Below are positions 1-25,848 of a DNA stretch of 32,000 nt, piece by piece. The DNA comes from Candidatus Hermodarchaeota archaeon (GTDB taxonomy: Archaea; Asgardarchaeota; Heimdallarchaeia; Hodarchaeales; Hodarchaeaceae). Position 1 is the first letter of the stretch. Each line of letters begins with the position of its first letter. The notes below the pieces were generated by a model. It ran no database searches and was not told the origin of the DNA. It worked only from the letters and a program-made list of their open reading frames with translations. A program made the position numbers and the translations under genes. The stretch covers positions 60,001 through 92,000 of the forward strand of contig JBHLKY010000009.1 in assembly GCA_048886185.1 (NCBI GenBank), read 5' to 3'.

Positions 1-807
1 GCCTGTACAGTGATCATCTGTAACAAAAGTTGCTCCTAAATCTTCAACCATTGATATAAATTCAGTATCATCATCTTCAGAACCCAAAATCATCAATCTC
101 TCACCTGGAGCCTTAATATTTCTTGAAGGAAGCTCTTGAAGCAGTAATTCCAGAGCTCGATTGTGTTCCTTTTTATCAGTCATTTGACTCGAAACAACCA
201 TATACATTGCTTCAAGGCCTGTCAGAGGTGGATTTGCACCCTTTCTAAGATCATAAACTTGCTGTATAAGCCGTCTGTTTGTGTTCATGAGCTCGATTCC
301 TCGTTTAAGATCATCATCAGTAATGGGTCGGCCTATCCATTTTTCTACGGAAGCCTTGAATTGAACTAGTTCCTCTCGTAAATAGGGGATAGCACGAGGA
401 CTTTGAACATGCATTGGATGGGGTAAATAATAGCTATAATCGGTCGGGATATGAATATCCCAGCTAGTGAATGCTTGTCTGATATGAAGGCAGCTCTGAG
501 CGATCATTATCCCATCAAGATAATCAAAACGTCCTTTTAAACCCTGTGCTAAGCAGTCACGACAAAAAGGGCAAAACATAGCAAAAATATGTGGTTCAGT
601 AACATCTTGCGGTTCATGACTCCCTAGAATGCGAACAGGAAGGATATCTGCAGCATATAATATTTCTTCAGGGACATAGGTACAAAAGTACCCCATTACT
701 TTACCTCCAGTACGCTTTTTCCATGTCATTGCGTAGTCATGTCGGTTCTTGTACCAATCCTTAAATTGGTCAAACAGGCCTGATTTTTCTTTTTGTACAA
801 GTTCCAT
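1..807 (-). CDS. bzdN: Benzoyl-CoA reductase, bzd (Azoarcus)-type, subunit N (BcrC/2-hydroxyacyl-CoA dehydratase-like); 3' end runs off the window start
   Basis: Manual translation of the minus strand from ATG 807 (AGGTG RBS upstream) is open to base 1: MELVQKEKSGLFDQFKDWYKNRHDYAMTWKKRTGGKVMGYFCTYVPEEILYAADILPVRILGSHEPQDVTEPHIFAMFCPFCRDCLAQGLKGRFDYLDGIMIAQSCLHIRQAFTSWDIH...LMILGSEDDDTEFISMVEDLGATFVTDDHCTG. The FCTYVPEE, CPFCRDCLAQGL and SCLHIRQ motifs match BzdN as I know it. Not in the ORF track because the stop is outside the window. Confidence 0.9.
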   Translation of the reverse strand, partial: MELVQKEKSGLFDQFKDWYKNRHDYAMTWKKRTGGKVMGYFCTYVPEEILYAADILPVRILGSHEPQDVTEPHIFAMFCPFCRDCLAQGLKGRFDYLDGIMIAQSCLHIRQAFTSWDIHIPTDYSYYLPHPMHVQSPRAIPYLREELVQFKASVEKWIGRPITDDDLKRGIELMNTNRRLIQQVYDLRKGANPPLTGLEAMYMVVSSQMTDKKEHNRALELLLQELPSRNIKAPGERLMILGSEDDDTEFISMVEDLGATFVTDDHCTG

Positions 808-837
808 CAATTTGAACACCTTTCAATGTTTGATTCT

Positions 838-1293
838 TTACAACTCCTTCATTAGAGTGATAAATCCACTTTTTTTCATTCCCAAAGTCTTGAAGAACTC
901 GAGAAGATCACTAGAAGTCCAATCAACAGTTGTATAAACAATATTGATTCCACGGGATTTGAAGTCCTTAAGGAGTCTTTCTCCGAGTTTTTTTCCAACC
1001 CCTTTTGCTGTATGTGAGGGATCCACACCTAACATTTCGATCCACCCTCCGTTCTCGACACCAAATAGCCAAGGATGGATGGTTGCCATCATAAATCCTA
1101 CAACATTACCCCCAATTTCAGCAATTAGATTAATACTTTCAGGTCGACTAAGATAATGTTGAACTTGTGATTTCCACATAATTGGACGGTGAGTACGAGT
1201 GATTTTCTCATCAATAGCTACAACTGAAGAAATATCGTTTTCTACCATTTTCCTAACAAAGATATTATCTTCAGTTATGTTCATTGTAAACAT
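838..1293 (-). CDS. GNAT-family N-acetyltransferase
   Basis: 151 aa with GNAT pattern: VRKMVENDISSVVAID, LIAEIGGNVVGFM, WIEMLGVDPSHTAKGVGKKL (motif A), LLEFFKTLGM (motif B). Confidence 0.88.
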   Translation of the reverse strand: MFTMNITEDNIFVRKMVENDISSVVAIDEKITRTHRPIMWKSQVQHYLSRPESINLIAEIGGNVVGFMMATIHPWLFGVENGGWIEMLGVDPSHTAKGVGKKLGERLLKDFKSRGINIVYTTVDWTSSDLLEFFKTLGMKKSGFITLMKEL

Positions 1294-1305
1294 CTCTTGA
1301 CTTTT

Positions 1306-1533: not shown

Positions 1534-1962
1534 ATATTAGCCCAAGATTGATAATTTTTGCGAACACTTGGGAAAAAACTGTTAAAGCTTCTAATCTGTA
1601 ATTCAAAGAATAATTAAAAAGATTTTGTTATACTAAGTTATGTTATAATTACAATGGATTATAATTGGATTATGAATCAGCCACTTTATTAAAAAGGATG
1701 GTATAACTGAGTCTCTCTGGAATCATAAAAACAGATCCCTATTCACTGTAAGTGGCTATTTATATTAAATTCAGTCTGTGTGGCTTTGTAGTGAGTATCT
1801 AAAAGAAAGAAGTTGGATTTACTAGGAAATCGCCTTTGTATCTTCGATTAGACTGTCAAAGACTCTCATCAAAGTTGAAAGAGATGATATTGGACTCAAG
1901 AAAGTTTCCTCATTTTGAGCAATTCTTATATTTTTAAGACAAAAAGGAAAGCTTCGAGACTT

Positions 1963-2244
1963 ATGGTTGGAAAATTAAAGATACTTTTTCATGCAACCTT
2001 TAGAGAAGTTGCTGGAAAAAGAGAAATTGAAGAAAAACTTAACAAAAAGACTACTGTGTATGATGTCATCGATAATTTAGCTAAAAAATATGGAAAGGAT
2101 TTCAATGACATAATCGATCCAGAAACAAATAAAATTTCTACTGAAGTTTTAGTCCTGCTTAATGGGCGAGGTATTAGAACGACAGATTTAATACTTAAAG
2201 ATCAAGATGTTTTAATAATTACGCTTCCTCTTGGCGGTGGTTAA
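1963..2244 (+). CDS. moaD: MoaD/ThiS/SAMP-type ubiquitin-like sulfur carrier
   Basis: LKILFHATFREVAG N-terminus, VLVLLNGR and C-terminal LPLGGG. ATG 1963 preferred over the track start at 1915. Confidence 0.88.
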   Translation: MVGKLKILFHATFREVAGKREIEEKLNKKTTVYDVIDNLAKKYGKDFNDIIDPETNKISTEVLVLLNGRGIRTTDLILKDQDVLIITLPLGGG

Positions 2245-2264
2245 GAGAGAAAGGTGATTATATT

Positions 2265-2408
2265 TTGAATGAAGTTAGATGTTTAAACTGTTTGAAACAC
2301 TTTGAGGTTCAATTAATGGCTGAAGAGGCTGCTTGTCCCAACTGTAAGACTCGGTATCGGATTTCTTGGCCCAGACCAGATCAACCTAAGATTCGTGGGT
2401 CAGTCTAG
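2265..2408 (+). CDS. 47-aa zinc-ribbon/rubredoxin-like microprotein (not in ORF track)
   Basis: AGGTGA RBS (2252-2257), TTG start: MNEVRCLNCLKHFEVQLMAEEAACPNCKTRYRISWPRPDQPKIRGSV*. Two CxxC pairs, and it fills the gap between moaD and the AOR gene. Confidence 0.8.
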   Translation: MNEVRCLNCLKHFEVQLMAEEAACPNCKTRYRISWPRPDQPKIRGSV

Positions 2409-2430
2409 TTAAACGCTTGAGGCGAAATAG

Positions 2431-4332
2431 ATGGTTTGGAAAAAGAAAGTAGCTTTTATAGATTTATCAACAGGAAAAATAACTGAGAAAATAATTCCTA
2501 AATCATTCAGGAAGCAATATCTAGGTGGCCGAGGGATAAATGCACACTATATGTACAATCGAATACCACCTGGAATTGATCCATTAGGACCACAAAATGC
2601 TTTACTTATTGGTACTGGGTTACTTACAGGAATTCCCGCTCTTGGCGCTGGTAGATGTGATATTGCAGCAAAATCCCCATTGACAGGAGCAGTTGGAGAC
2701 TCTAATATAGGGGGATTTTTCGCGCCTGAAATGAGATTGGCTGGTTTTGATCATTTAGTTATAACCGGGAAGGCAGAAAAACCTGTTTACCTCTGGATTC
2801 ATGATGGAGAGATAGAAATCTCCAATGCAAGCCATCTTTGGGGAAGTGACACATTTAAAACACAAGATCAGATCCGTTCCGATCATAATGATGAAGAAAT
2901 CAAGAGTCTAGTAATTGGTATAGCAGGTGAAAAGCTTGTACGTTATGCTAACGTAAGAACTGGCATGAAAAACTCTGCTGGGCGGACTGGAATGGGCTGT
3001 GTCATGGGTTCCAAGAATTTAAAAGCTGTTGCAGCTCGTGGAACAATGGATATTGAATTCTCATATCCCGAGGAATTATTAGATTATTGTGCTGCAATGA
3101 ATGAGATGATTACGAATTCTCGATGGGCAAGGGCACAATCAAAATGGGGTACACTTATTATTTATAGTAATACAAATACAACAGGATTGATCCGTACACG
3201 AAACTTCCAAAAGAATCTGTTAGAGGATGGGGAAGATCTAGAACCCGAAAATATGGACCGATATACGATTGGTATGTCTGGGTGTTATGGTTGTAGTGTT
3301 CATTGTCGCCACCGATATGTGTTGGAAGATGGGCCTCATGCTCATTTTGGAGAAGGACCTGAATATACCTCTTTAGGTGCTTTCGGAACAATGGTTGATT
3401 GTAAAAAAATGGAAACAGTCTTGGCTGCAAATCACCTAGTAAATAAGTATGGGATAGATACACTTGAAGTTGGGGGGATCATTGCATGGGCCATGGAGCT
3501 CTGGGAAAAAGGGATCCTAACTGAAAAAATAACCGATGGGTTGACACTCGAGTGGGGAAATGAAGACATTCTTTTTGAGCTTATTCGCAAAATATCCTAT
3601 AGAGAGGGCCTAGGGAACATCCTTGCCGATGGATTCAAACCAGCTATCGCGAAGATTGGTAAAAACTCAAAATATTACGCTATGCAGATAAAAGGTATGA
3701 GTAATCTACACTCTGATGAACGTCCGACACCTAGCTTGGCTTTGAACATCGCTACTGCGACACGGGGTGCAGATCACCTAAGAAGTAGACCAGCTATTGA
3801 CCTTTATGGATTACCTGAAAATCTCTTAGAGGAGATATATGGTGCACCTGTTTCATCTGATTACACTTCATATGAAGGTAAAAGTCGCATGGTTTGGTGG
3901 CAAGAACTTTTATATGCTGTGACTGATTCAATTGGGACATGTAAATTTCAAACGGTCTTCTGTGCCGTTCACGCACCCAAATGGGATGAATTTTCCAAAC
4001 TCATATATCTAACTTCAGGGTTAAACATAGCTAAATCGCAACTTATGGAAATTGGGGAGAGAATTACAACAACTGAACGCTTATTTAACATTCGTGAAGG
4101 ATTCTCCAGAAAGGATGATAACCTTCCAGAACGCTTCTTTAAGGAACCAACACCTATTGGATTTCCTATTGCAAAAAACAAGAAAATTAATAGAGACAAA
4201 TTCAATACAATGTTGGACGAATACTATGCCCTTCATGAATGGGACATAGATGGAGTTCCAACCAAAGAGACCGTTCAGAAACTTGGATTGAAGAATAAGG
4301 ATTCTTTTAAACTAAAGAACGGAGAACTATAA
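2431..4332 (+). CDS. aor: Aldehyde:ferredoxin oxidoreductase family (tungstopterin) catalytic subunit
   Basis: YLGGRG, KSPLTG, GRTGMGCVMGSKNLKAVAARG, CYGCSVHC (Fe-S), GPEY, RGADH, GTCKF, ERLFNIREG...DDNLPERFF, LDEYYALHEWDIDGVP. Confidence 0.93.
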   Translation: MVWKKKVAFIDLSTGKITEKIIPKSFRKQYLGGRGINAHYMYNRIPPGIDPLGPQNALLIGTGLLTGIPALGAGRCDIAAKSPLTGAVGDSNIGGFFAPEMRLAGFDHLVITGKAEKPVYLWIHDGEIEISNASHLWGSDTFKTQDQIRSDHNDEEIKSLVIGIAGEKLVRYANVRTGMKNSAGRTGMGCVMGSKNLKAVAARGTMDIEFSYPEELLDYCAAMNEMITNSRWARAQSKWGTLIIYSNTNTTGLIRTRNFQKNLLEDGEDLEPENMDRYTIGMSGCYGCSVHCRHRYVLEDGPHAHFGEGPEYTSLGAFGTMVDCKKMETVLAANHLVNKYGIDTLEVGGIIAWAMELWEKGILTEKITDGLTLEWGNEDILFELIRKISYREGLGNILADGFKPAIAKIGKNSKYYAMQIKGMSNLHSDERPTPSLALNIATATRGADHLRSRPAIDLYGLPENLLEEIYGAPVSSDYTSYEGKSRMVWWQELLYAVTDSIGTCKFQTVFCAVHAPKWDEFSKLIYLTSGLNIAKSQLMEIGERITTTERLFNIREGFSRKDDNLPERFFKEPTPIGFPIAKNKKINRDKFNTMLDEYYALHEWDIDGVPTKETVQKLGLKNKDSFKLKNGEL

Positions 4333-4333
4333 A

Positions 4334-4816
4334 ATGCTGAAGATATTATTTGTTGATCCAGAAAAATGTACAGGATGCAAAATCTGTGAAAGTGTGTGTT
4401 CCATTCATCAGGAAAAGGTTCTTAATCCCGTTCGAGCTAGAATCCATGTTATAAAATGGGATAACTCCGGTATATACATTCCTATGATTTGTCAGCAATG
4501 TGAGACACCAATTTGTGAATCGGTGTGTCCTATGCGTGCCATACATAGAGATGAGAATAAGGCTCTCATTATTGATTATAATGCATGTGTTGGGTGTAAA
4601 TTATGTGTTACCTTTTGTCCTTTTGGTGGCGTAGGAATAGACAATAAAGGCAAAGTTATCAAGTGTGATCTATGTAATGGTGAACCTCAGTGTGTCAAGA
4701 GGTGTGAACCTAATGCATTACAGTATATTGAAGCAACTTCAATCAATATAAGAAAAAGAAGAGCTGCTGCTGAAAAATTCTCCGAATTATTTAAGAAAAT
4801 ATTGATAGCCACGTAA
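4334..4816 (+). CDS. 4x[4Fe-4S] polyferredoxin electron-transfer subunit (AorA/DmsB/CooF-like)
   Basis: CTGCKICESVC, CQQCETPICESVCP, CVGCKLCVTFCPFG, KCDLCNGEPQCVKRC. Starts 1 nt after the AOR stop. Confidence 0.92.
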   Translation: MLKILFVDPEKCTGCKICESVCSIHQEKVLNPVRARIHVIKWDNSGIYIPMICQQCETPICESVCPMRAIHRDENKALIIDYNACVGCKLCVTFCPFGGVGIDNKGKVIKCDLCNGEPQCVKRCEPNALQYIEATSINIRKRRAAAEKFSELFKKILIAT

Positions 4817-8925: not shown

Positions 8926-10461
8926 TCAAAGATACATTGCTGCTTCTATTATTTCAGCTATATCTTTAATTTCTAGCGGTATAGATTTCTTTCGTGCAGT
9001 AATGTAGAAATTCATTTGACACTGAGGACAAGCAGTCGTCAAGAGATCCACATTAACTGAAGAAAAGTCTTCCTTTAATCTCATATGAGCAGAATTCATG
9101 CTTACATTATGGTTGTATGTCCAAAGACCTCCTCCTCCACCACAACAACGCGATTTATTCCTGTTAAAAGGCATTTCAACTAGTTTTAGTTCTGGTATGG
9201 CTTTCAAAACATTCCGTGGAGCATCAAACACATTACTGTGTCGGCCTAAGGAACAGGGGTCATGATAAGTTATCTTCTGTTTTAACTCCCTTAGTTCTAT
9301 CTGGCCATTCTTAATCATTTTTTCAAGGAATTGAGTTGAATGAAATGTTTTACAGGGAACAGAAACATCAAGGATCTCAGGATATAACCTTGTAAAAGTA
9401 TAATAACATCCTGCACACGGTGTAATTACTGAATCAGCTTTAGTTTTTTCAATTCTATTGATAAGCTCATTTGCAGCTTGTTTTGCTTCATCCCATAACC
9501 CTGAAGCAAGTAAAACATAGCCACAACACCCTTCATCTTTTCCTAATGTAGTAAAATTTTGTTTTGTATTAGTTAAGATATTAAAGAAAGCTCTAGCTGT
9601 ATTTGGGGTTCGATTCGCAACCACACAGCCAATGAAATAGAGATGATCAGCGTGTTTTGGAAGTTTTGTTATAGGGACATTCTTAGTCCAAGCAAGTCGT
9701 CGCTCTATAGGAACAGCGCTAGGATCTCCAAATTCTAAGATATTATTTGCAGTGGAATAAAATACTTCTGGAGCCATGTTATTTTCGACAATATGCCGTC
9801 TCATATGAACAATTGCCTCATGAAGATCTGATTTTTGAAAACATTCTCCAAAACAGCGTCCACACTTACTACAAGTATATAAAATATCAGTAATTTTGTT
9901 TGTAAGATCCAGCTCTCCTTTCATAACTCCTTTAATCAATAATCCTCTGCCTCTGGCAGAATAACTTTCGATTCCGTTAAAAAAAGGAGTTACAGTACAA
10001 TAATCACTACATATAGAAGATTGGAGGCAGGTGTTTCCGAATTTTTGTAGAAACAGTGTTTGTACAGCTAAAGCGAAATTTCGATAGGTTCCATGGCTAA
10101 TTCGAAGAAGTTTAAACAAATTGTTATGTAAATCTGATTTTTCTCGATTCTTCGTGATCTTATTATCTGGTGTGGGAATTTTTACATCATCTAACAGAAT
10201 TATTATGTTCGAGCTTGTGAAAGTAGAAGATTGATGATTGCCTCTTTGAATTAATGTTACATTCTCTTTATCAGCTGTTTCTAAAACTTTTTTTTTCTGA
10301 TCCGCTGAATATACTTTAACCACAATATCAGGCATTGGATAAGCCTGATCCATGAAAATTTGTTCAAAGGAATAAACGTATCGGTCTTCTGAGTCGGTAA
10401 GGACTTGAATTTTTGATGAAATCTGTTTTAGTTGTTCAATCAATATCTTCTGAAGCACCAT
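8926..10461 (-). CDS. Fe-S oxidoreductase (GlpC/HdrD-like): ferredoxin-like domain plus two CCG domains, with a degenerate FAD-binding-like N-terminus
   Basis: CSKCGRCFGEC, YFIGC, EGCCG, PCAGC, YHDPCSLGR, RCCGGGGG, ACPQC. Confidence 0.88.
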   Translation of the reverse strand: MVLQKILIEQLKQISSKIQVLTDSEDRYVYSFEQIFMDQAYPMPDIVVKVYSADQKKKVLETADKENVTLIQRGNHQSSTFTSSNIIILLDDVKIPTPDNKITKNREKSDLHNNLFKLLRISHGTYRNFALAVQTLFLQKFGNTCLQSSICSDYCTVTPFFNGIESYSARGRGLLIKGVMKGELDLTNKITDILYTCSKCGRCFGECFQKSDLHEAIVHMRRHIVENNMAPEVFYSTANNILEFGDPSAVPIERRLAWTKNVPITKLPKHADHLYFIGCVVANRTPNTARAFFNILTNTKQNFTTLGKDEGCCGYVLLASGLWDEAKQAANELINRIEKTKADSVITPCAGCYYTFTRLYPEILDVSVPCKTFHSTQFLEKMIKNGQIELRELKQKITYHDPCSLGRHSNVFDAPRNVLKAIPELKLVEMPFNRNKSRCCGGGGGLWTYNHNVSMNSAHMRLKEDFSSVNVDLLTTACPQCQMNFYITARKKSIPLEIKDIAEIIEAAMYL

Positions 10462-10638: not shown

Positions 10639-11406
10639 ATGGTAGATGATCTAATTCAAGTTGAGAAAAGTAATAATATTGGAAAAATAACATTTAACAA
10701 TGGAGACTGGAATATTTTAAATATTGCAATGATGAAGCAGATTAATGAAGCACTTGAGGGCTTTGTTAATGACCAATCTCTTAAAGCAGTCGTTATTGAC
10801 CACACTGGAAGATCATTTTCAGCAGGAGTCGATGTGGGTGAGCATATGGGTGATTTAGCTCCCAAAATGCTGAAAGAATTTCATACTATGTTTAAAAAGC
10901 TCAACCGATTGAATTGTCCAACAATTGCCAGTGTTAAGGGAGCTGCTCTCGGTGGGGGTTGCGAAGTGGCAATATTTTGTGACATTGTCCTTGCGTCCGA
11001 AAAAGCGAAGTTTGGCCAACCCGAAATAAAAGTAGGAGTCTTTCCACCTGTATCAGTAATCATATTTCCATTTCTCACTGGTAGCAAGAAAGCTTACGAA
11101 CTTCTGCTTCAAGGCGAAACTATCAGTGCAAATGAGGCACATAGTCTCGGTTTAGTCAATCATGTTTTTCCAGTTGAGGCATATGAATATGAATTTAACC
11201 AATTTCTTGAGAGATTTAGCAAATTAAGTACAGTTGTATTGCACCATACCAAAAAAGCGATTCGATTAGGAATGGCTGACAAATTCGATTCTCAAATCGA
11301 TAAAGTTGAACAATATTACCTAAATGAGCTCATGAAAACATATGACGCAAATGAGGGACTACAGGCGTTTGTTGAAAAACGATCTCCTAAATGGGAGAAT
11401 CGGTAA
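10639..11406 (+). CDS. dch: Crotonase-family enoyl-CoA hydratase, probably cyclohexa-1,5-diene-1-carbonyl-CoA hydratase
   Basis: FSAGVDVGEH, ALGGGCE, GQPEIKVGVFPP and the C-terminal VEQYYLNELMKTYDANEGLQAFVEKRSPKWENR, which closely resembles characterised Dch. The benzoyl-CoA context supports the call. Confidence 0.78.
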   Translation: MVDDLIQVEKSNNIGKITFNNGDWNILNIAMMKQINEALEGFVNDQSLKAVVIDHTGRSFSAGVDVGEHMGDLAPKMLKEFHTMFKKLNRLNCPTIASVKGAALGGGCEVAIFCDIVLASEKAKFGQPEIKVGVFPPVSVIIFPFLTGSKKAYELLLQGETISANEAHSLGLVNHVFPVEAYEYEFNQFLERFSKLSTVVLHHTKKAIRLGMADKFDSQIDKVEQYYLNELMKTYDANEGLQAFVEKRSPKWENR

Positions 11407-13700: not shown

Positions 13701-13711
13701 GGTGCGAAACA

Positions 13712-14935: not shown

Positions 14936-15361
14936 TTACAGAGTTACTCGTGACACCAGTTGTATCGAGAGATATTTTATTCCTTGAATAGCACGAAACT
15001 TCTTTACCAATGATCGAATATTTATTGCTTCATCACTAACAATAAGATTCTCTAAACACTCATTTGATTGAATGTGGTGATGATAGGAGTACGAGAGATT
15101 CAAATCATGTTGAGCTTCTATAAATTGGGAGATTGTAGCTAAATCATGGTGATTATAAACAACAGATATAATTACTGTTATTTTTACTGAATCATGTATA
15201 GTCTCCAGTCCTTTTTCTGACTCAAAGAAATTTTGGAGAGCATCTCGTATCATCTGTGATTTATTCTGGTATCCAAATTCTTTTACCTTAGTAGATATTA
15301 GCTCTTTAAACTCTGGATCACATGAAAATGTAATTGTTTCACGTACGCCTCTTCCTGCCAT
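14936..15361 (-). CDS. nikR: Nickel-responsive regulator (RHH + ACT-like)
   Basis: RHH N-terminus TITFSCD...KSQMIRDAL; QH and HHHIQSNEC fit the NikR His/His-x-His-x5-Cys Ni site. Confidence 0.82.
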   Translation of the reverse strand: MAGRGVRETITFSCDPEFKELISTKVKEFGYQNKSQMIRDALQNFFESEKGLETIHDSVKITVIISVVYNHHDLATISQFIEAQHDLNLSYSYHHHIQSNECLENLIVSDEAINIRSLVKKFRAIQGIKYLSIQLVSRVTL

Positions 15362-15385
15362 TAAAATCCCTTTCTTGGTTAATAA

Positions 15386-16159
15386 TTAGTTTATTTTGAA
15401 TTCTTGTTGATAAAATTCTTCAAATGAAGAAAAATCACCTTTTATCTGCCCTTCTTTAAGTAACACAATTCTATCAGCAATTTTCATCATTTCAAAATCC
15501 TGTGAAATAACTATAACTGTTCTTTTTTTTCTAAATGATTCAATTATTGATACCATTTTGGGTTTAGACCAGGGATCAATACCAATGGTTGGTTCATCTA
15601 GCACAATTACCTCTGGTTCCATTGCTAACATCCCCGCAAAAGCTACTTTTTTTTTCTCCCCAAAAGATAAGTTAAAAGTTATTCTATCTCGTAGATGAGT
15701 GATATTGACTTCTTCTAATACTCTCTCCACTCTTTCTTTCACGTCACTTTCAGGAAGTTTCATATTTCTAGGGCCAAAAGCGATGTCATCATATACTTTA
15801 GGATAGAATATTTGCTCATCTGGATTTTGAAATACCAATCCAACTGATTTTTGAACTAATTTTCTATTTTTCCGAGTAATAGAATTCCCTAAAACAATTA
15901 CTTCTCCCTCTTGAGGTAGAGTTAAACCATTAAAGTGTTTCATCAAAGTTGTTTTTCCAGATCCATTGGGCCCAGCAATAACCGTTAAGGCATTTTTAGC
16001 AAACTTTACTGAAATGTCACTTAATACTAGAGGCTCTTTCTTAACGTAACGGAAAGACAAATTATGCACTTCAATGATACTATCTGACAAAAATTTCTCA
16101 TTATTTTCCTTTATGATTATCATTTTAGTAACCACAGACTCTTTATTCGAAATCACCAA
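15386..16159 (-). CDS. cbiO: ECF transporter ATPase (CbiO/NikO)
   Basis: GPNGSGKTT, VFQNPDEQ, LSFGEKKK, LDEP. Confidence 0.92.
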   Translation of the reverse strand: MVISNKESVVTKMIIIKENNEKFLSDSIIEVHNLSFRYVKKEPLVLSDISVKFAKNALTVIAGPNGSGKTTLMKHFNGLTLPQEGEVIVLGNSITRKNRKLVQKSVGLVFQNPDEQIFYPKVYDDIAFGPRNMKLPESDVKERVERVLEEVNITHLRDRITFNLSFGEKKKVAFAGMLAMEPEVIVLDEPTIGIDPWSKPKMVSIIESFRKKRTVIVISQDFEMMKIADRIVLLKEGQIKGDFSSFEEFYQQEFKIN

Positions 16160-16941
16160 TCCAAGCTGACTATCATAATTAATAGGGTAAGAATCAGGAT
16201 TATCGTAAGAAAAATGATTCCATTTGATCTCCAGGGTATTCTAGGGTGTGGAATTTTTCCTGAAAATCCTCTTGCGGAAAGAGTGGCTGAAATATGTTCA
16301 GCTCTTTTGAATGATCGTGCTAATGCTGAACCAATAATGTTTCCTGTAATTTTCAAGGAATTAAAATTTAAAAACAGTTTTTGACCATAAAAACGGTTTG
16401 ATCTGGCTTCTAGAACTCGTTTAAACTCTTCTTCCATGAGGAAGAAAGATCTATAAGTTAGAAAGGTCAAATTAGTTAAAAAACTAGGTAAAAACAAATC
16501 ATTCAAACCGTAAATTGTCTCAAAAAATGTTTCCTCTGAATTTATCATTGTTAAAACAAAGAATACGATTAATAAGCTTCGGGCTCCTGAAAAAATTGCA
16601 AAAGAAACATTAGTATGCGTTGTAGTATATAATACAGTCTTATACACTGTTATAGAAGGATTAAAAGAAAGAAATGATATTACAGTCAGAGAAAGAATTA
16701 TAGGTGTCGCTAAGATACTATATTTCAACATTCTTCTTCTTGGTTTGAATACTAGTAAAAATATTAAGAAAATCAGAAAGAACCAAAAAAGCTGTTGTAG
16801 ATTTACTATTAGGGAACATGCAAGAACAACAATAAATGTAGCTAATATCTTACTCCGAACATCGACTAGCTGGCTTTTTTCTTCTTCAAAAGGATAATGA
16901 GTGTGTGATTGCTGATTGTGTATATCCTTTCCCTCTATCAA
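16153..16941 (-). CDS. cbiQ: ECF transmembrane T component (CbiQ/NikQ)
   Basis: DVRSKI, TM helices, ARS and ARGF (Ala-Arg-X) motifs. Confidence 0.85.
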   Translation of the reverse strand: MIEGKDIHNQQSHTHYPFEEEKSQLVDVRSKILATFIVVLACSLIVNLQQLFWFFLIFLIFLLVFKPRRRMLKYSILATPIILSLTVISFLSFNPSITVYKTVLYTTTHTNVSFAIFSGARSLLIVFFVLTMINSEETFFETIYGLNDLFLPSFLTNLTFLTYRSFFLMEEEFKRVLEARSNRFYGQKLFLNFNSLKITGNIIGSALARSFKRAEHISATLSARGFSGKIPHPRIPWRSNGIIFLTIILILTLLIMIVSLDW

Positions 16942-16963
16942 AGAATGGTCGTATTAACAAATG

Positions 16964-17278
16964 TTAATTGGAAGTTTCAGTTGATTTTTTGTGTCGTACA
17001 ATAGCGATTGGAATAAGTAAGACTCCCATTACAAATAATATTCCTATAAGACCTGAAAAAATTATAGATAATTGTTCATTGCCTATCAATTGGAAAAGTA
17101 GGGAGTTTTTTGACCCATAATCACTAAGTATACCTAAATCAAATACGTTTCCTTCAGATGCATAATCATCAGCAGCACTTTCAAGGCCATCTGGATTGGG
17201 ATCTGCAAAAGGGGCTAATAGAAGAAAAATCGTCAATATAGTAATAACTCCAATTGTCAACTTCGTTTTTGATTTCAT
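16964..17278 (-). CDS. PDGLE-domain accessory membrane component (NikN-like)
   Basis: NPDGLES motif flanked by two TM segments, lying between the M and Q genes. Confidence 0.85.
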   Translation of the reverse strand: MKSKTKLTIGVITILTIFLLLAPFADPNPDGLESAADDYASEGNVFDLGILSDYGSKNSLLFQLIGNEQLSIIFSGLIGILFVMGVLLIPIAIVRHKKSTETSN

Positions 17279-17282
17279 AAAA

Positions 17283-17969
17283 TCATCTCTTTGTGTTTGA
17301 GATTTTAGGAAATGGTTTTGTTACCGCCAGAAAGACGTTCATTTCAATTGTATTGAAGTATATCACAATGAAAGTTGTAATAAAGCCTTCAGCAATCCCA
17401 ATTAACGTGTGATAGAAAAGAATAGTTGGTAATGTGACCGTAAAAGGGATTGTTGCTAGATTATTAAAAATAGGTATTCCTATTTCTATAGCAGCAAAGA
17501 ATGAACCCATTAAAACAGATAAAAAAGCACCAAGAAAGACACCACCATAATAGCGTATCTTATGGGCTTCAGGCTCAATATTAAGCATTAATTGTCGGAT
17601 TATAATGTATCCAACTAAAACTCCAACTATAGCCATATTGAAAATGTTAGCACCAAGAGCTATTATTCCTCCATCGGCAAAAAGAAGAGCTTGGATTAAG
17701 AGAACAATTGTAATTACTAAAATTCCCCCCCATGGACCCACAATGGAGGCAGCTAATGCTCCACCCAGTAAATGCCCAGAAGTTCCCCCAATAATCGGAA
17801 AATTTAACATCTGAGCTGCAAAGATGGTTCCTCCTAATACAGCCATATAAGTGATTCTAGTTTCGTCAAAATCTCGCGTTTTATATAGACATAGTACTAA
17901 TACAGATACCGTTATAATCCATGTTACAAGTAAGAATGCAGGATCCACCCAACCATCAGGAATATGCAT
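17283..17969 (-). CDS. cbiM: ECF S component CbiM/NikM
   Basis: MHIPDG N-terminus (NikM-type), FAAQMLNFPI, GTSGHLLGG, GANIFNM, HTLIGIAEG. Confidence 0.92.
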   Translation of the reverse strand: MHIPDGWVDPAFLLVTWIITVSVLVLCLYKTRDFDETRITYMAVLGGTIFAAQMLNFPIIGGTSGHLLGGALAASIVGPWGGILVITIVLLIQALLFADGGIIALGANIFNMAIVGVLVGYIIIRQLMLNIEPEAHKIRYYGGVFLGAFLSVLMGSFFAAIEIGIPIFNNLATIPFTVTLPTILFYHTLIGIAEGFITTFIVIYFNTIEMNVFLAVTKPFPKISNTKR

Positions 17970-19879: not shown

Positions 19880-21097
19880 TCACTCCAACTTCAAACCACT
19901 TGTGCATTCTTTTGGTAATTCTTTATGTAATATCTTTGCTAATCTTTTCATTCCTTCAATTATTTTGGATTCAGTCATGTTTGAAAAGTTCAGGCGAATA
20001 GAGTTTTCATGACCACCATTGGGGTAAAAACATTCGCCTGGGACAAAAGCTACTTTTTCTTCCTGAGCTTTTTCCAACAGTTCCCGTCCATTAATATTTT
20101 TTGGAAATTCTAGCCATATAAAGAAACCACCTTCAGGGGTTGAAAATTTAACTTCTGGTGGGAAATGTTCTTTCATAATCTTGATCATTAGGTCCCTACG
20201 TTGTTTATATACTTGAGTTATTCTTTTAATATTAGCGTCGATATCAAATTCTTCTAGAAATAATGCAACTTCTCTTTGTGCTATTGTATTACATTGTAAA
20301 TCTGCGACTTCTTTTAGCATGACATATTTTTTTATTACTTCTCTATCTGCACATATCCAGCCTATTCTAAGCCCTGGACAAAGAATTTTAGAGAATGTCC
20401 CTAAAAAAACCACTCTACCTTCTGTATCAAAAGCTTTAATGGGAGGAATTCTCTCTCCTTCAAATCTGAGCTCTCCGTATGGGTTATCTTCTATAACAGG
20501 TAAATTAAATTTGTTAACTATATCTAAGAATTCTTTACGTCTTGTTTCTGACCAACTAATTCCTGTAGGATTTTGAAAATCAGGTGTTACATAAATCATT
20601 TTTGCTTTAGGTGTCTTAGCTAACACTCTCTTCAGTTCATTCAGAATCATCCCGTCATTATCTATTGGAATCTCAATAAATTGTGCCTGATATGACCTGA
20701 ATGCCCCTATTGCTCCCAAATAACTTGGTTTTTCACATATAACAACATCACCTGGATTTAAGAACAGTTTTCCACTGAAGTCTATCCCTTGTTGGGATCC
20801 ATTTATGATTAGAATGTTCTCTAGTGATGTTTTGACTCCTAGGTTTCGCATTCGTTCAGCTATTTTCTGTCGTAACGGAGGATAACCATCTGTTGGAACG
20901 TATTGTAGTGCTGATGCCCCATTTTCCTCTAAAACCTTAACTGAAATTTGTTTCAATTCTTCGACAGGAAATAATTCAGGGGCAGGTAATCCACCAGCAA
21001 ACGATATTATACCTGGTTTACCTATGAACTTGATGATTTCTCGTGTTTCTAAACCTTTTACTTGTTGCATGCGATCTGCATATTTTAATTTCATCAT
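19880..21097 (-). CDS. PLP-dependent class I aminotransferase (LysN/aromatic aminotransferase-like)
   Basis: ISFAGGLPAPELFP, GSQQGID, FQNPTG, EDNPYGEL, GTFSKILCPGLRIGW, GGFFIW, IRLNFS. ATG 21097 preferred. Confidence 0.9.
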   Translation of the reverse strand: MMKLKYADRMQQVKGLETREIIKFIGKPGIISFAGGLPAPELFPVEELKQISVKVLEENGASALQYVPTDGYPPLRQKIAERMRNLGVKTSLENILIINGSQQGIDFSGKLFLNPGDVVICEKPSYLGAIGAFRSYQAQFIEIPIDNDGMILNELKRVLAKTPKAKMIYVTPDFQNPTGISWSETRRKEFLDIVNKFNLPVIEDNPYGELRFEGERIPPIKAFDTEGRVVFLGTFSKILCPGLRIGWICADREVIKKYVMLKEVADLQCNTIAQREVALFLEEFDIDANIKRITQVYKQRRDLMIKIMKEHFPPEVKFSTPEGGFFIWLEFPKNINGRELLEKAQEEKVAFVPGECFYPNGGHENSIRLNFSNMTESKIIEGMKRLAKILHKELPKECTSGLKLE

Positions 21098-21381
21098 GAA
21101 GGCACCATAGAATGTTAGAACTAATTTTTTATGATAATTGTTAAATTTAAGCAAATTTAGTAAAAAATCACTTGTTTATTAAAAATTCCTTTTAATAATG
21201 GGCTGTATTGATCTCTTTGATATGCCTTTTTAGTTTAAGATTTAGTAGGTGGTTCTAAAAGCTCATTAATGATTGAATTTCTTCGCACTTTACGTAAGCC
21301 TCTAGGATAAAAACCAAATATATTCGTGAAACGATTCATAATAGGCTTTTTAATAAAAAAATTCAAAAAATGGTGTATCTT

Positions 21382-22575
21382 ATGGCTTTTGAGTTCGACG
21401 AAGAGCAAGAAATGTTCAGAGAAAGTGTAAGAGAATTTTGTGATAGGAAAATTGTCCCCCTTGGTCTCACAATAGAGGAAACCAAGGAGATTCCGAAGGA
21501 AATAAAGAAAGGTATGGCCGAGCTCGGTCTTCTTGCGTGTACAGCTTCCCCAGATTACGGAGGTTCTGGCTTGAATGCTGTAAGCGCAGGTGTTATAGCA
21601 GAAGAACTGGGTAGAGCGGATCCAACGGGCTCAATTCCCGTTTTCTATCTCGTTCAAGCATCTTGGGGTTTTTTACTAAACAAATATGGTACTGAAGAAG
21701 CTAAAAAAGAAATATTTCCAAAAGTAGTTAGTGGAGACTGGTTTCTTGGAATTGCTACGACTGAAGCAGATGCTGGTTCGGATGTCGTTGGTACTTCAAT
21801 GACAATAAAGAAAGTATCTGACGGATTTATTGTTAATGGTGAAAAGATGTATATCAGTGGGGTGCGGGAAGCTGCAACTGGTGGTGGTGGCCATGTTACA
21901 ATTGCACATCAGACACCAGAGCGTGGTAGTAGAGGTATGACAGTCTTCTATTTCCCCTTAACCGCTGAAGGAGTCACACCTACTTATATTTCAGACCTAG
22001 GTAGAGAGGGAATCTCTTGTGGTGGTTTTACTGCTGACAATGTGAAGATTCCCAGTCATTATATCATTGGAGAAGAAAATCGTGGTTTTAATATCATTCA
22101 TGAAGGCTATGAGTTTGCTAGAGCATTAATCGCAGTAATTTGTGCATCATCGGGTTTAAAATCCCTAGAAAATGGTATGAATTATATAAAAGAAAGAAAA
22201 GTCTTTGGAACTGCTATTGGAAAGTTTGAAGAAATTAATTTCAGATTAGCAGAGCACTATACAAGGCTTTGTGCTCTAAAAGATATGGGTTATAAGGCTT
22301 TATGGCTTATTGACAGAGAACAGGAAGGAAAAGCAGGTAGATTTGAAGTTAGTAAAGCTGTTGCCATGGCCAAAATGTTTGCCTCTGATTGGGCCTGTAA
22401 TGCAATAAATGATGTCATGCAGTGGCAAGGCGCATTCGGCTATTCAAGAGAATGCACTGATCAGGCTGCATGGAGAGCTGTCAGATCATTCGCGCTTGCA
22501 GAAGGATCTAGAGAAGTTATGAAAATGATTGTAGCCAGAGAACTCCTTGGTAAAGACTTTATCGCATATAAATGA
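21382..22575 (+). CDS. Acyl-CoA dehydrogenase
   Basis: TTEADAGSD, NGEKMYISG, ERKVFG, QWQGAFGY, EGSREVMK. ATG 21382 after GGTG. Confidence 0.9.
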   Translation: MAFEFDEEQEMFRESVREFCDRKIVPLGLTIEETKEIPKEIKKGMAELGLLACTASPDYGGSGLNAVSAGVIAEELGRADPTGSIPVFYLVQASWGFLLNKYGTEEAKKEIFPKVVSGDWFLGIATTEADAGSDVVGTSMTIKKVSDGFIVNGEKMYISGVREAATGGGGHVTIAHQTPERGSRGMTVFYFPLTAEGVTPTYISDLGREGISCGGFTADNVKIPSHYIIGEENRGFNIIHEGYEFARALIAVICASSGLKSLENGMNYIKERKVFGTAIGKFEEINFRLAEHYTRLCALKDMGYKALWLIDREQEGKAGRFEVSKAVAMAKMFASDWACNAINDVMQWQGAFGYSRECTDQAAWRAVRSFALAEGSREVMKMIVARELLGKDFIAYK

Positions 22576-22617: not shown

Positions 22618-23412
22618 GTGATAATTGTGAGATTCATAGTTTGTGTAAAACAGGTTCCTGATACTACAGAGGTAAGAGTCGACCCTAAAACCAACACATT
22701 GATCAGAGAAGGGGTTCCATGCATATTAAATCCTTTCGATCAATTTGCGCTTGAAGAGGCAGTCAGAATAAAAAAAGAGGGGGATGAAATTGTTGTTATT
22801 TCGATGGGTCCTCCTCAAGCAAAAAAAGAGCTGATGAAATGTCTTGCATTAGGTGCTGACAAGGCAATATTGTTAAGTGATAGAGTCCTTGCAGGGGCAG
22901 ACACTTGGGCTACATCTTACACTCTTGCTCAGGCTGTCAAAAAGATTGGTGACTTCGATATAATATTTTGTGGATATCAAGCTATCGATGGAGATACAGC
23001 TCAAGTCGGGCCTGAACTTGCAGCGCAACTTGGAATACCTCAAATCACATATATTGAAAGTGTTGAAGAATTAAGCAAAAAAAAATTGATTGCAAAATCT
23101 CAAACAGATGATGGTTACAAAATAGTGGAAGTTAAACTTCCAGTTCTTTTGACAGGAATAACCCCATCTGGATTTATACCTAGAAGTCCACCATTACCTA
23201 ATATAATAAAAGCAAAGCAAAAACCGTTCTCCACTTGGAACGTAGAGGATCTTGGGGGTGAAAAAGACAAGTACGGTTTGGGGGGGTCATTGACACAGGT
23301 CATAAAAGTCTATGCTCCGCCCACACGCAAGAAAGGTGCTATAATAACTGATGAACCAAATGTTGCAGTTGAGAAATTGATGGAAAAGTTAACCGAAGAT
23401 AAGGTGATTTGA
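22618..23412 (+). CDS. etfB: Electron transfer flavoprotein beta subunit
   Basis: VCVKQVPD, NPFD, GADTWATS, QAIDGDTAQVGP. Confidence 0.94.
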   Translation: MIIVRFIVCVKQVPDTTEVRVDPKTNTLIREGVPCILNPFDQFALEEAVRIKKEGDEIVVISMGPPQAKKELMKCLALGADKAILLSDRVLAGADTWATSYTLAQAVKKIGDFDIIFCGYQAIDGDTAQVGPELAAQLGIPQITYIESVEELSKKKLIAKSQTDDGYKIVEVKLPVLLTGITPSGFIPRSPPLPNIIKAKQKPFSTWNVEDLGGEKDKYGLGGSLTQVIKVYAPPTRKKGAIITDEPNVAVEKLMEKLTEDKVI

Positions 23413-24599
23413 TGATAACTGTCAAGGAAGAACTTTGTAATCACTGTGGAAGCTGTGTTAAAGCATGCCCTTTCGGTGCTATAAAAATTATTAATCAAAT
23501 TACTGCCATTGGAGAAGAATGTACACTCTGTGGAGCTTGTGCTCAGGTTTGCAAACCCTGTGCTATAGAAATTGAAAAGAAAGAGATAAAAGATATTGAC
23601 TTTTCCCGCTACAAAGATATTTGGGTTTTTACTGAGATTAAAGACGAAAAAATAAGAAATGTAACATTTGAGTTACTTGGAAAAGCAAGAAAATTGGCAG
23701 ATGAACTAGAACAGGACGTTTGCGCGGTTATTCTTGGAAAAGATGTCAAAAAATTATGTAAAGATCTCTCTGTTTATGGTGCAGACAGAATATTCGTTGC
23801 TGAAGATGAAATTCTAAAGAATTACTACACAGATCCTTATACCTCTGTTCTTGTCGGATTGATATTGAAGTATAAACCAAATATTGTAATTTATCCAGCT
23901 ACAAAAATTGGTAGAGATTTAGCACCCAGGGTCGCTGCAACCTTGGAAGTGGGTCTTACAGCAGATTGTACTGGATTATCTATACAGAATGGAAGATTAC
24001 TTCAATCCAGACCTGCTTTCGGTGGTAACATAATGGCTGACATAATTTCTGTGACTAGACCTCAAATGGCTACGATTAGACCAAACGTGATGAAAAAGAG
24101 TCCTCCAAACTACGATAGAGTCACTGAAATCCTAGAGATACCTGTAAAAATAGATCTTAAGGGAATTAGAACAGTGATAAAAGAAGTTATCAGCACTAAA
24201 TCCTATGTTACAGTTCCACTTGATGAAGCAGAAATTATTGTCTCAGGTGGTAGAGGAGTTGGTAGTAAAGAGAATTTCAAAATCATTGAGGATCTAGCAA
24301 ATGTACTTAATGCATCAGTAGGAGCAAGTCGCTCTGCAGTTGATTTGGGCTGGAAACCAAAATCATTTCAGGTTGGACAAAGTGGGACTACAGTTTCTCC
24401 GAAAATATACATTGCGTGTGGCATAGCAGGGAAAATTCAGCATCTTGTCGGAATGTCTGGATCTGATACGATAATTGCAATAAATAAAGACCCGGAAGCT
24501 CCGATATTTAATGTGGCTGATTATGGTATTGTTGGTGATCTAAATAAAGTTGTACCACTATTGACAGAAGCATTAAGGAAGGAATTTGCTTCACGATGA
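23412..24599 (+). CDS. etfA: Electron transfer flavoprotein alpha subunit with N-terminal 2x[4Fe-4S] ferredoxin domain
   Basis: CNHCGSCVKACP, CTLCGACAQVC, then GLTADC, RPAFGG, SGGRG, GASRSAVD, QVGQSG, QHLVGM, INKDPEAPIF. Confidence 0.94.
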   Translation: MITVKEELCNHCGSCVKACPFGAIKIINQITAIGEECTLCGACAQVCKPCAIEIEKKEIKDIDFSRYKDIWVFTEIKDEKIRNVTFELLGKARKLADELEQDVCAVILGKDVKKLCKDLSVYGADRIFVAEDEILKNYYTDPYTSVLVGLILKYKPNIVIYPATKIGRDLAPRVAATLEVGLTADCTGLSIQNGRLLQSRPAFGGNIMADIISVTRPQMATIRPNVMKKSPPNYDRVTEILEIPVKIDLKGIRTVIKEVISTKSYVTVPLDEAEIIVSGGRGVGSKENFKIIEDLANVLNASVGASRSAVDLGWKPKSFQVGQSGTTVSPKIYIACGIAGKIQHLVGMSGSDTIIAINKDPEAPIFNVADYGIVGDLNKVVPLLTEALRKEFASR

Positions 24600-24660
24600 A
24601 ATCTTCTAGAAACATATTTTTCGAATTTAATCTAGTCAAATTAAATTGAGGTGGAACCTT

Positions 24661-25848
24661 ATGGATTTTGAATTATCTGATGAACATGAGATGCTAAGAT
24701 CGTCAGTTAGGGAATTTGTTGATCGTGAAATAATACCCAAGATTAAAGAATATGATAGAAATGAAGAATTTCTCCCCCCTCTGGATATAATGGGAAAGAT
24801 GGGGTTGTTAGGTATATGTTTTCCCGAAAAGTATGGAGGTGCGGGAATGGATTACCTCGCACTAGCAATAGCATGTGAAGAGCTTGAAAGAGGGGATATA
24901 TCACTCCGAACTGTCCTCTCTGTACACGTTGCTTTGACTTCCTGTACGATTTATCAATGGGGCAATACTAAACAAAAAGAAAAGTATTTCATACCTCAAA
25001 ATCATGGGAGAATGATTGGAACGACTGCAATGACTGAACCATCATGTGGCTCAGATGTGGCAAATGTTACAACCCGTGCAGAGAAACAAGGTAGCCATTA
25101 TATTGTTTCTGGTCAAAAAACTTGGATCTCTCTAGCTGATATCGCCGATAATTTTCTTGTTCTGGCACGAACGGGAGAATCTGGTTATAAGGGGCTTTCT
25201 TTATTTATTATTGAACGAGATTTTACTGGTGTAACCACTACTTCTTTGCATCATAAATTAGGGACTCGTGCAGGAAACACAGGAGAGCTTTTTCTCGAAA
25301 AAGTGGAAGTTCCTGAAGAAAATCTTCTTGGACATGAGGGTGAGGGTTTCAAGATTTGCATGTCAGCACTGGATAATGGTCGTTTTACTGTCGCTGCAGG
25401 TGCAGTAGGGACAATTAAAGCAGCTCTTGAATCGTCAGTAAAATATTGTCATGAAAGAAAGGCGTTTGGTCAAGAAATTGGGAGATTTCAGTTGATTCAA
25501 GAACATCTAGCTCATATGCAAGCTGCTTATGACGCTTCCCAATTATTAGTGTATAAAGTGGCATGGATGAAAAATCAAGGTAAACGAAATACACGTGAAA
25601 CAAGTATGGCAAAGTGGTTTGCCACCACCCATGCTCTTGATGCAGCCAATAGAGCTATTCAAATACACGGTGCATATGGGTATACCAGTGATTATCCCGT
25701 TGAAAGGTTATGGCGGAATGTACGGGGAGCTTGCATTTATGAAGGAACAAACGAGATTCAAAAGTTGATTCAAGGATCTTACATTATGGGGTATCGAAAG
25801 TATAGGCCTCTACGTTGCGAGATGCCTCCTTATGACCCATTAAGCTAA
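24661..25848 (+). CDS. Acyl-CoA dehydrogenase (glutaryl-CoA dehydrogenase-like by context)
   Basis: TEPSCGSD, GQKTWIS, IQIHGAYGY, YEGTNEIQ. GAGGTGG RBS. Substrate is inferred. Confidence 0.88.
   Translation: MDFELSDEHEMLRSSVREFVDREIIPKIKEYDRNEEFLPPLDIMGKMGLLGICFPEKYGGAGMDYLALAIACEELERGDISLRTVLSVHVALTSCTIYQWGNTKQKEKYFIPQNHGRMIGTTAMTEPSCGSDVANVTTRAEKQGSHYIVSGQKTWISLADIADNFLVLARTGESGYKGLSLFIIERDFTGVTTTSLHHKLGTRAGNTGELFLEKVEVPEENLLGHEGEGFKICMSALDNGRFTVAAGAVGTIKAALESSVKYCHERKAFGQEIGRFQLIQEHLAHMQAAYDASQLLVYKVAWMKNQGKRNTRETSMAKWFATTHALDAANRAIQIHGAYGYTSDYPVERLWRNVRGACIYEGTNEIQKLIQGSYIMGYRKYRPLRCEMPPYDPLS

Follow-up and report, generated by a model that had tools for sequence, protein, structure and literature searches.

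The 32,000-nucleotide stretch analysed here (the window: positions 60001-92000 of the 215-kb contig JBHLKY010000009.1, hereafter C9) belongs to a metagenome-assembled genome of the Hodarchaeales, the archaeal order usually placed nearest eukaryotes. We conclude that the window is probably the core of a catabolic island of about 52 kb (C9:53.7-105.7 kb) with a predicted class I, Bzd-type, ATP-dependent benzoyl-CoA pathway. Genes in the window were taken from a listing of open reading frames (ORFs) and from Pfam and NCBIfam profile scans, with NCBI's curated values as equivalog cut-offs; the host genome comprises 4.84 Mb in 75 contigs, with 96% completeness and 5% contamination. A preliminary description of the window, made from its letters alone, had named bzdN, dch, had, a thiolase, a short-chain dehydrogenase/reductase (SDR), two acyl-CoA dehydrogenases (ACADs), an electron transfer flavoprotein (ETF), an aldehyde:ferredoxin oxidoreductase (AOR), ferredoxins and Rag-like GTPases, and the Pfam and NCBIfam scans recover each of these families where it had been placed (Table 1). 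Its central proposal, anaerobic degradation of aromatic rings by an ATP-dependent reductase, is supported as a predicted function, with BzdN, BzdO and BzdQ over their cut-offs and Oah found on the contig. As the genome has a single copy of each of bzdNOPQ, dch, had and oah, all of them inside 43 kb, and as the island is syntenic in a sister species and has tighter versions in other Asgard and bacterial genomes, the clustering is not due to chance.

The reductase operon and its Asgard host

The preliminary description had suggested looking for bzdO, bzdP and bzdQ to the left of the window, and all three are there, directly 3' of bzdN, together with ferredoxin and bzdV-like genes. The contiguous bzdN-O-P-Q genes, on one strand, encode two catalytic subunits of the HGD-D family and two BcrAD/BadFG ATPases. 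Full-length BzdN (TIGR03190, 489.3 bits against a cut-off of 453.8), BzdO (TIGR03191, 695.7 against 448.6) and BzdQ (TIGR03192, 409.8 against 380.2) all score as equivalogs; BzdP matches the BcrAD_BadFG ATPase family (PF01869) and TIGR00241, and no bzdP-specific model came up. The two genes 3' of bzdQ encode a 95-aa 2×[4Fe-4S] ferredoxin and an 843-aa Fer2/NuoG/GltD fusion resembling the ferredoxin reductase BzdV, and both are kept in almost every one of the 80 related loci long enough to show them.

Structures of BzdNO are available (8S02, 8S1T and 8S2R; Nat Commun 2025, PMC11971306), and the window's host encodes close relatives of the Aromatoleum proteins in 8S02: BzdO matches 8S02_A at 675 bits and about 70% identity, and BzdN matches 8S02_B at 475 bits and about 60% identity. 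The PDB matches of the same proteins to 2-hydroxyisocaproyl-CoA dehydratase (HadBC) are weaker, at 105 bits for BzdO and 155 bits for BzdN. In HMMER alignments to the two 8S02 chains, BzdO retains the cluster ligands Cys95, Cys128 and Cys380 and the catalytic residues Glu65, His131 and Trp46 named for the crystallised enzyme (PMC11971306), and BzdN retains the six [8Fe-9S] ligands named there (Cys36, Cys73, Cys100, Cys263, Cys293 and Cys327) along with Arg53, Arg267, Arg290 and His330. Ser44 of BzdO is replaced by Gly. Because the 8S02 scores far exceed those to HadBC and the residues named for the crystallised enzyme are all conserved, we exclude a 2-hydroxyacyl-CoA dehydratase; BzdN does not group with the dehydratases, a placement that the preliminary description had considered. 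By sequence, the operon encodes a four-subunit BzdNOPQ enzyme that carries the iron-sulfur ligands and Glu/His/Trp residues of the crystallised reductase and is predicted to share its function. Elsewhere the genome holds HGD-D proteins closer to HadB/HadC than to Bzd, 5-12 kb left of the bzd operon (C9:47575-48807 and C9:50315-51142) and on contig C17 (12.3-14.6 kb), plus a lone activase; these are likely 2-hydroxyacyl-CoA dehydratases for amino-acid fermentation.

In a BzdO tree of 79 sequences, the Asgard proteins form a clade of 41 rows (SH-aLRT 100) with two subclades, a Hod-type one that includes the present sequence and a Loki-type one, and with Aminicenantes and Thermoplasmata as neighbours. 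The closest homologues (87-92% identity) are labelled 'Candidatus Hodarchaeota', 'Hodarchaeales', 'Hodarchaeum mangrovi' and 'Heimdallarchaeota B3_Heim/bin6', and the NCBI pipeline already calls public Hodarchaeales proteins 'benzoyl-CoA reductase, bzd-type, subunit O'. BzdO exceeds its cut-off in 57 of 400 Asgard species genomes, or about one in seven, and is concentrated in three families (13 of 22, 10 of 19 and 31 of 135 genomes). Two kinds of oddity were seen in these data. BzdO falls inside the Loki-type subclade on three short contigs (C341, C373 and C388) of the genome 'Heimdallarchaeota 7H_bin003' (G023) and on contig DAOVRZ010000160.1 of a 'Halanaerobiales' bin (L069); these copies probably arose through faulty binning and not through gene transfer. 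In one family (f12), six genomes of 2.2-2.7 Mb (G093, G099, G103, G104, G106 and G107) have several over-cut-off BzdO matches that contain one TAG or TAA in frame, which recalls the recoding of stop codons reported in certain Asgard lineages (PMC9723677).

The bzd operon is headed by a gene for a GNAT acetyltransferase. This gene is kept directly upstream of bzdN across phyla (loci L086-L116), at 59-68% identity in Hod-type Asgard loci and at 35-51% in bins assigned to Aminicenantes, Thermoplasmata and 'Eubacteriales'. It is missing from the Loki-type loci, where dch and had fill the position. GNAT may have a conserved role in the operon, either regulatory or accessory.

Two further genomes of the same GTDB genus bear on the integrity of the contig. 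One is CP070695.1 ('Candidatus Heimdallarchaeota archaeon bin6', G058), a closed chromosome of 4.94 Mb that is syntenic with C9 across the bzd operon and the flank to its left; the other, from a different species, is a 410-kb contig (JBHLMN010000002.1, genome G065) that is syntenic over the entire island, with proteins 75-95% identical. Since the operon with its flank recurs in the first and the entire island in the second, chimerism is excluded, and the suggestion that the contig is Asgard and non-chimeric is borne out; C9 also carries Asgard signature genes on both flanks of the island. The related suggestion that the pathway genes are clustered rather than scattered holds for C9 and G065 and fails for CP070695.1, where dch and had lie at 3.92 Mb and oah at 4.05 Mb, apart from the bzd operon, so that the pathway is not always clustered.

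Candidate genes for the lower pathway

A search of the contig for oah, also proposed in the preliminary description, located the gene on the right-hand side, 3.8 kb past the window. Its product exceeds the equivalog cut-off over its full length; judged by its sequence it is a bona fide Oah, the predicted ring-opening enzyme. Between bzdN and oah lie a crotonase and a Zn-dependent alcohol dehydrogenase that we take as candidates for Dch (cyclohexa-1,5-diene-1-carbonyl-CoA hydratase) and Had (6-hydroxycyclohex-1-ene-1-carbonyl-CoA dehydrogenase). For each the corresponding NCBIfam model is the top match, TIGR03189 scoring 21 bits above generic enoyl-CoA hydratases and TIGR03201 37 bits above AdhP.

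The surroundings of related genes point the same way. About 20 Loki-type Asgard loci share the order ECH-Dch-Had-BzdN-O-P-Q-Fd-BzdV (ECH, enoyl-CoA hydratase; Fd, ferredoxin), with 61-67% identity to the window's Dch and 72-75% to its Had; Planctomycetota loci are ordered Oah-SDR-Dch-BzdN-O, with Dch at 48-51% identity; and in Gemmatimonadota, Zixibacteria and Acidobacteriota, Had homologues (54-57% identity) are found close to bzd operons. Across the 83 species genomes of the class, the Dch orthologue and Oah are restricted to the window's genus, where Dch occurs in 16 of 22 genomes. In that genus bzdO, oah, dch and had occur together in 11 genomes and are all missing from four, and the genomes holding partial sets are 70-94% complete. 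As kin are not independent, the pattern within the genus is supportive only, and the synteny across phyla is the stronger argument. From the best-model matches, the cross-phylum synteny and the co-occurrence, we infer that the crotonase is Dch and the alcohol dehydrogenase Had.

Downstream of had, an SCP-x/archaeal-type thiolase and a fusion of a DUF35 (Zn-ribbon/OB) domain to a FabG-like SDR are candidates for the thiolase and the 3-hydroxyacyl-CoA dehydrogenase acting on 3-hydroxypimeloyl-CoA; both are syntenic in G065 at 86-92% identity. The reading frame of the DUF35-SDR overlaps the stop of the thiolase gene before it, and in the bzd loci of Planctomycetota, SDR homologues (43-45% identity) stand between oah and dch. 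Genes on the right-hand side of oah encode a second thiolase, a 3-hydroxybutyryl-CoA dehydrogenase (Hbd; 421 bits, cut-off 408), an acyl-CoA ligase (C9:99134-100837), IorA and IorB (658 bits, cut-off 651), a thioesterase and a CitF-like protein of the CoA-transferase type. With these thiolases, the DUF35-SDR, Hbd and their neighbours, every step from 3-hydroxypimeloyl-CoA to acetyl-CoA has a candidate gene at the level of family membership.

Less can be said of the two ACADs. ACAD1 is divergent: its highest-scoring model, that for cyclohexanecarboxyl-CoA dehydrogenase, gives 205 bits where the cut-off is 575, and the GDH_Des model for glutaryl-CoA dehydrogenase (GDH) gives 191 bits. In several Loki-type Asgard loci, and in none of the bacterial ones, the bzd operon is closely followed by an ACAD1 orthologue (76-80% identity) together with EtfBA. 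ACAD2, a short-chain enzyme, is the genome's best match to GDH_Des (NF045552, 364.7 bits against a cut-off of 470; AcrC, 352), and in PDB it matches the butyryl-CoA dehydrogenases (Bcd) 4L1F (310 bits) and 5OL2_C (292) as well as it does GDH_Des 3MPI (291). The glutaryl-CoA dehydrogenase of the preliminary description could therefore be assigned to neither ACAD. In the open literature we found no paper giving residues that separate decarboxylating from non-decarboxylating GDH.

The ETF genes stand between the two ACAD genes, and EtfA has an N-terminal 4Fe-4S ferredoxin domain. The five best PDB matches of each subunit are all bifurcating ETFs (254-199 bits for EtfB, 380-265 for EtfA), led by CarD and CarE of 6FAH, and non-bifurcating ETFs score under half as much (at most 99 and 182 bits, respectively).

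Several observations weigh against the pathway as we read it. Both ring-modifying candidates fall under their equivalog cut-offs (Dch, TIGR03189, 186.7 bits against 292.5; Had, TIGR03201, 223.3 against 338.65), and their assignment therefore rests on genomic context. None of the best 120 homologues of the Dch-like protein is a characterised close relative: all are from uncultured Asgard archaea, with generic names at NCBI and the name 'Dch' in JGI automatic annotation. All ACADs stay short of the glutaryl-CoA dehydrogenase cut-off, and in the genome, which is 96% complete, the beta subunit of glutaconyl-CoA decarboxylase (GcdB/OAD_beta, PF03977) was not found. The genome's best match to benzoate-CoA ligase (TIGR02262) scores 234 bits against a cut-off of 375. 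In G062, a 94%-complete genome from this genus, oah, had and dch are present without a bzdO over the cut-off; either the assembly has missed its reductase operon, or the lower pathway acts on alicyclic or other substrates too, as this combination of genes suggests that it may. Two weaker points are that the ETF is predicted to be of the electron-bifurcating, CarDE-like type and that the adjacency of Rag GTPases to the pathway is probably incidental, the result of an unrelated insertion (see below).

Electron supply, substrate entry and rival explanations

The AOR, of the tungsten type, is encoded with a MoaD/ThiS-like protein, a CxxC microprotein and a 4Fe-4S partner in a module that is kept between bzdN and dch in Hod-type loci (79-84% identity). 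The microprotein gene is a 47-codon ORF (2265-2408, forward strand) with two CxxC pairs, between the MoaD/ThiS-like and AOR genes. We considered the AOR and its ferredoxin-like partner as a class II reductase of the BamB type and rejected this, since genuine AORs are better matches (9mqx, 365 bits; 1aor, 348 bits) than BamB is (4z3w, 254 bits). Divergent from dch lies the gene for a soluble HdrD/GlcF-like CCG iron-sulfur oxidoreductase with one dicluster, an N-terminal region of about 130 aa without a domain call, and no hydrophobic segments; it is kept beside dch in Hod-type loci at 49-76% identity.

For entry into the pathway, the island's acyl-CoA ligase scores 163 bits against the TIGR02262 cut-off of 375. 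In Loki-type loci its orthologues (64-66% identity) stand directly upstream of dch-had-bzdN, and on this ground the ligase is the leading candidate for the activation step. An entry from phenylalanine through phenylacetyl-CoA to benzoyl-CoA is unsupported: genome-wide there is one weak match to molybdopterin oxidoreductases (PF00384), and a PadBCD-type molybdoenzyme was not found. As only this one weak match exists, nitrate respiration is unsupported as well. The genome does hold [NiFe] hydrogenases, a haem-copper oxidase subunit I (450 bits) and several homologues of ADP-forming acyl-CoA synthetase, one of them near the island. The preliminary description had proposed a look at expression on benzoate or phenylalanine; a search of public sequencing runs returned sediment and estuary DNA runs only, the best four of which may come from the source sample, and no RNA run.

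From family membership, one can propose a scheme in which 3-hydroxypimeloyl-CoA would be shortened by the first thiolase, the DUF35-SDR, Hbd and the second thiolase, the short-chain ACAD with the bifurcating-type EtfAB would handle glutaryl-CoA, crotonyl-CoA or both, and acetyl-CoA would be cashed in through ADP-forming acyl-CoA synthetases. The low-potential electrons for ring reduction would probably come from AOR, IorAB and the BzdV-like protein, and possibly from the ACAD-Etf module.

The same enzymes, as annotated, could serve a different end. The island may serve to ferment aryl acids or aldehydes that come from aromatic amino acids or from lignin, and not to mineralise benzoate or hydrocarbons; benzoyl-CoA would then be an intermediate inside the scheme or a sink for electrons, as in the fermentation by which Syntrophus forms cyclohexanecarboxylate, and both ACADs with the bifurcating ETF would act on cyclohexene- or cyclohexane-carboxyl-CoA or crotonyl-CoA instead of glutaryl-CoA. 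Much in the gene content would suit this: the island's aminotransferase, AOR, IorAB, thioesterase and CitF-like CoA-transferase, the nearby ADP-forming acyl-CoA synthetase, the lack of a benzoate-CoA ligase match, the top model of ACAD1, the CarDE-like ETF, and [NiFe] hydrogenases in a genome where nitrate-reductase-type respiration is not seen. We nevertheless think it unlikely, for all ACAD assignments are far under their cut-offs, the PadBCD-type link from phenylacetyl-CoA to benzoyl-CoA was not found, Oah and the full beta-oxidation set argue for ring opening beyond ring reduction alone, and the haem-copper oxidase subunit I means that the organism does not live by fermentation alone. We also entertain, as a rather improbable elaboration, that a dedicated ACAD and the CarDE-like bifurcating EtfAB, which are kept by the bzd operon in Hod-type and Loki-type lineages alike and in none of the bacterial loci covered, feed reduced ferredoxin to the Asgard class I reductase and, with AOR and IOR, would make up a self-contained aromatic-fermentation island in which rings are reduced with no detectable anaerobic respiration of the nitrate type.

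Two other explanations concern the reductase itself. That BzdNOPQ reduces another aryl- or heteroaryl-CoA, for example a substituted benzoyl-CoA, seems to us very improbable. Class I reductases of altered specificity do exist, such as the 3-methylbenzoyl-CoA reductase MbdONQP (PDB 9G87), and the entry ligase has no assignment; yet the matches of BzdO and BzdN to the Thauera-type MbdO and MbdN (39.5 and 94.7 bits) are a small fraction of those to the BzdNO structure, the catalytic Trp46, Glu65 and His131 are conserved, and Oah scores as an equivalog. The idea that the cluster is foreign to an Asgard genome, through mis-binning or a chimeric contig, or that BzdN/O form a 2-hydroxyacyl-CoA dehydratase, draws on the mis-binned operon copies in G023 and the 'Halanaerobiales' bin and on the real dehydratase-like HGD-D pairs of this genome on C17 and at C9:47.6 kb. 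We regard it as effectively refuted by the length of the contig, with Asgard signature genes on both sides, by the synteny with CP070695.1 and G065, and by equivalog scores beside which the HadBC matches are four- to six-fold weaker. The benzoyl-CoA pathway thus read from the bzd operon, Oah and their neighbours is the explanation we retain.

Neighbouring genes and known systems

Table 1. Features of the window and of the adjoining parts of the island. Positions are those of the window unless prefixed with C9.
Feature	Position	Strand	Remarks
bzdO, bzdP, bzdQ, ferredoxin, bzdV-like	C9:53696-59647	same as bzdN	left of window
bzdN, whole gene, [8Fe-9S] subunit of class I Bzd-type reductase (predicted)	C9:59656-60819		387 aa; TIGR03190
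bzdN, 5' part (N-terminal 273 aa)	1-819	-	HGD-D family; best model TIGR03190
GNAT acetyltransferase, head of bzd operon	838-1293	-	PF00583
MoaD/ThiS-like, 47-aa CxxC microprotein, AOR and 4Fe-4S partner (module)	1915-4816	+	
Tungsten-type AOR	2431-4332	+	AFOR_N, AFOR_C
4Fe-4S protein, AOR partner	4334-4816	+	
HdrD/GlcF-like CCG iron-sulfur oxidoreductase	8926-10461	-	two CCG, Fer4_8
Candidate Dch (crotonase)	10639-11406	+	best NCBIfam model TIGR03189
Candidate Had (Zn-ADH family)	11469-12515	+	best model TIGR03201
SCP-x/archaeal-type thiolase	12558-13700	+	NF004720, 479.7 bits, cut-off 420
DUF35(Zn-ribbon/OB)-SDR fusion, FabG-like	13697-14923	+	zf-ChsH2, OB_ChsH2_C, adh_short
nikR and cbiO-cbiQ-PDGLE-cbiM, Ni/Co uptake operon	14936-17969	-	Pfam; missing from syntenic G065 island
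Class I/II aminotransferase	19880-21154	-	PF00155; syntenic in G065, 76% identity
ACAD1, divergent	21370-22575	+	all models far under cut-offs
EtfB	22618-23412	+	best PDB match CarD of 6FAH, 254 bits
EtfA with N-terminal 4Fe-4S ferredoxin domain	23409-24599	+	CarE of 6FAH, 380 bits, full length
ACAD2, short-chain	24646-25848	+	candidate glutaryl-CoA or butyryl-CoA dehydrogenase, indistinguishable here
Rag/Gtr-family GTPase	25875-27569	-	PF04670, 104 bits, cut-off 22
Rag/Gtr-family GTPase	28149-29051	+	PF04670, 132.5 bits, cut-off 22
Giant protein, 2131 aa	29076 to C9:95471		starts in window
oah	C9:95829-96938		3.8 kb right of window; 564.5 bits, cut-off 464.45

The Rag genes and the giant-protein gene form a block of about 10 kb that splits the island between ACAD2 and oah. 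The preliminary description had drawn attention to eukaryote-signature GTPases beside the cluster; they are indeed there, and the adjacency is not conserved and probably has no functional meaning. In G065 the gap from ACAD2 to oah is 1.9 kb, and neither Rag genes, the giant-protein gene nor cbiMNQO-nikR stand between the pathway genes. Rag paralogues occur in 19 of the 22 genomes of the genus and are beside pathway genes in none of the others, the nearest case being that of G062, where the contig with oah has a paralogue of 59% identity at a distance of 33 kb from that gene; the closest orthologue (82% identity) belongs to a genome without the pathway (G054). Because the arrangement is missing in G065 and unlinked across the genus, we take it as probably incidental and reject, as unconserved, a functional link between Rag and the pathway.

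Other unrelated genes of the region include a CitMHS transporter, cbiMNQO-nikR, an aminotransferase and a cyclophilin-like protein, among others. The nikR/cbi operon is outside the pathway and looks like lineage-specific cargo of the island. In G065 the AOR module and the HdrD-like gene stand about 15 kb apart, and a giant-protein homologue lies in that interval. The junctions of the island seem to accept differing cargo.

In Aromatoleum/Azoarcus sp. CIB the cluster runs bzdNOPQ-bzdM ... bzdV, with dch, had and oah homologues. The island has the same four subunits in N-O-P-Q order, followed by a ferredoxin and a BzdV-like reductase; it differs in its archaeal host, in the GNAT gene that heads the operon, in that a match to a BzdA-type benzoate-CoA ligase was not found, in a Dch and a Had that belong to a divergent, largely Asgard-specific clade under the TIGR cut-offs, and in the AOR, HdrD-like protein and bifurcating ETF embedded in it. 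Ferroglobus placidus, a hyperthermophilic Fe(III) respirer of the Archaeoglobi, is an archaeon that uses an ATP-dependent Bzd-type reductase and then Dch, Had and Oah, and it resembles the present case in this set of enzymes. It is called an anaerobic benzoate degrader in one paper (PMC6500515). The ETF module recalls the caffeyl-CoA reductase-Etf complex CarCDE of Acetobacterium woodii (6FAH) in the ferredoxin domain at the N-terminus of EtfA and in the ACAD genes that flank the ETF genes, whereas the island's ACADs match CarC at the general family level only (145-250 bits).

The pathway in Asgard archaea is already known. Zhang et al. 2021 (ISME J, PMC8163825) reported Hermodarchaeota contigs with Bcr, BzdV, ferredoxin, Dch and Had, as well as Oah, and found Bcr in three genomes of Heimdallarchaeota, another three of Lokiarchaeota and four of Hermodarchaeota; the accepted view is unchanged by our analysis. 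Their enzymes and those described here are of one clade, Asgard BzdO being monophyletic and 83-92% identical. The loci differ in that theirs is a compact dch-had-bzdNOPQ operon and ours a Hod-type, looser island of about 52 kb that brings oah and a complete set of lower-pathway candidates onto one contig, in a genus with a haem-copper oxidase. Three papers on Hodarchaeales in culture or in surveys (10.1101/2025.02.26.640444, 10.1101/2024.07.04.601786 and 10.1101/2025.11.08.687404) do not mention benzoyl-CoA or benzoate.

For the organisms, the finding means that most species of a Hodarchaeales genus carry a complete and apparently functional anaerobic route, as predicted, for the breakdown of aromatic rings. 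Set alongside a haem-copper oxidase and hydrogenases, this route adds to the picture of these archaea as metabolically versatile heterotrophs of sediments. BzdNO, Dch, Had, the island ligase and the ACAD-Etf module are targets for biochemistry, for which Hodarchaeales cultures and a BzdNO expression system exist.

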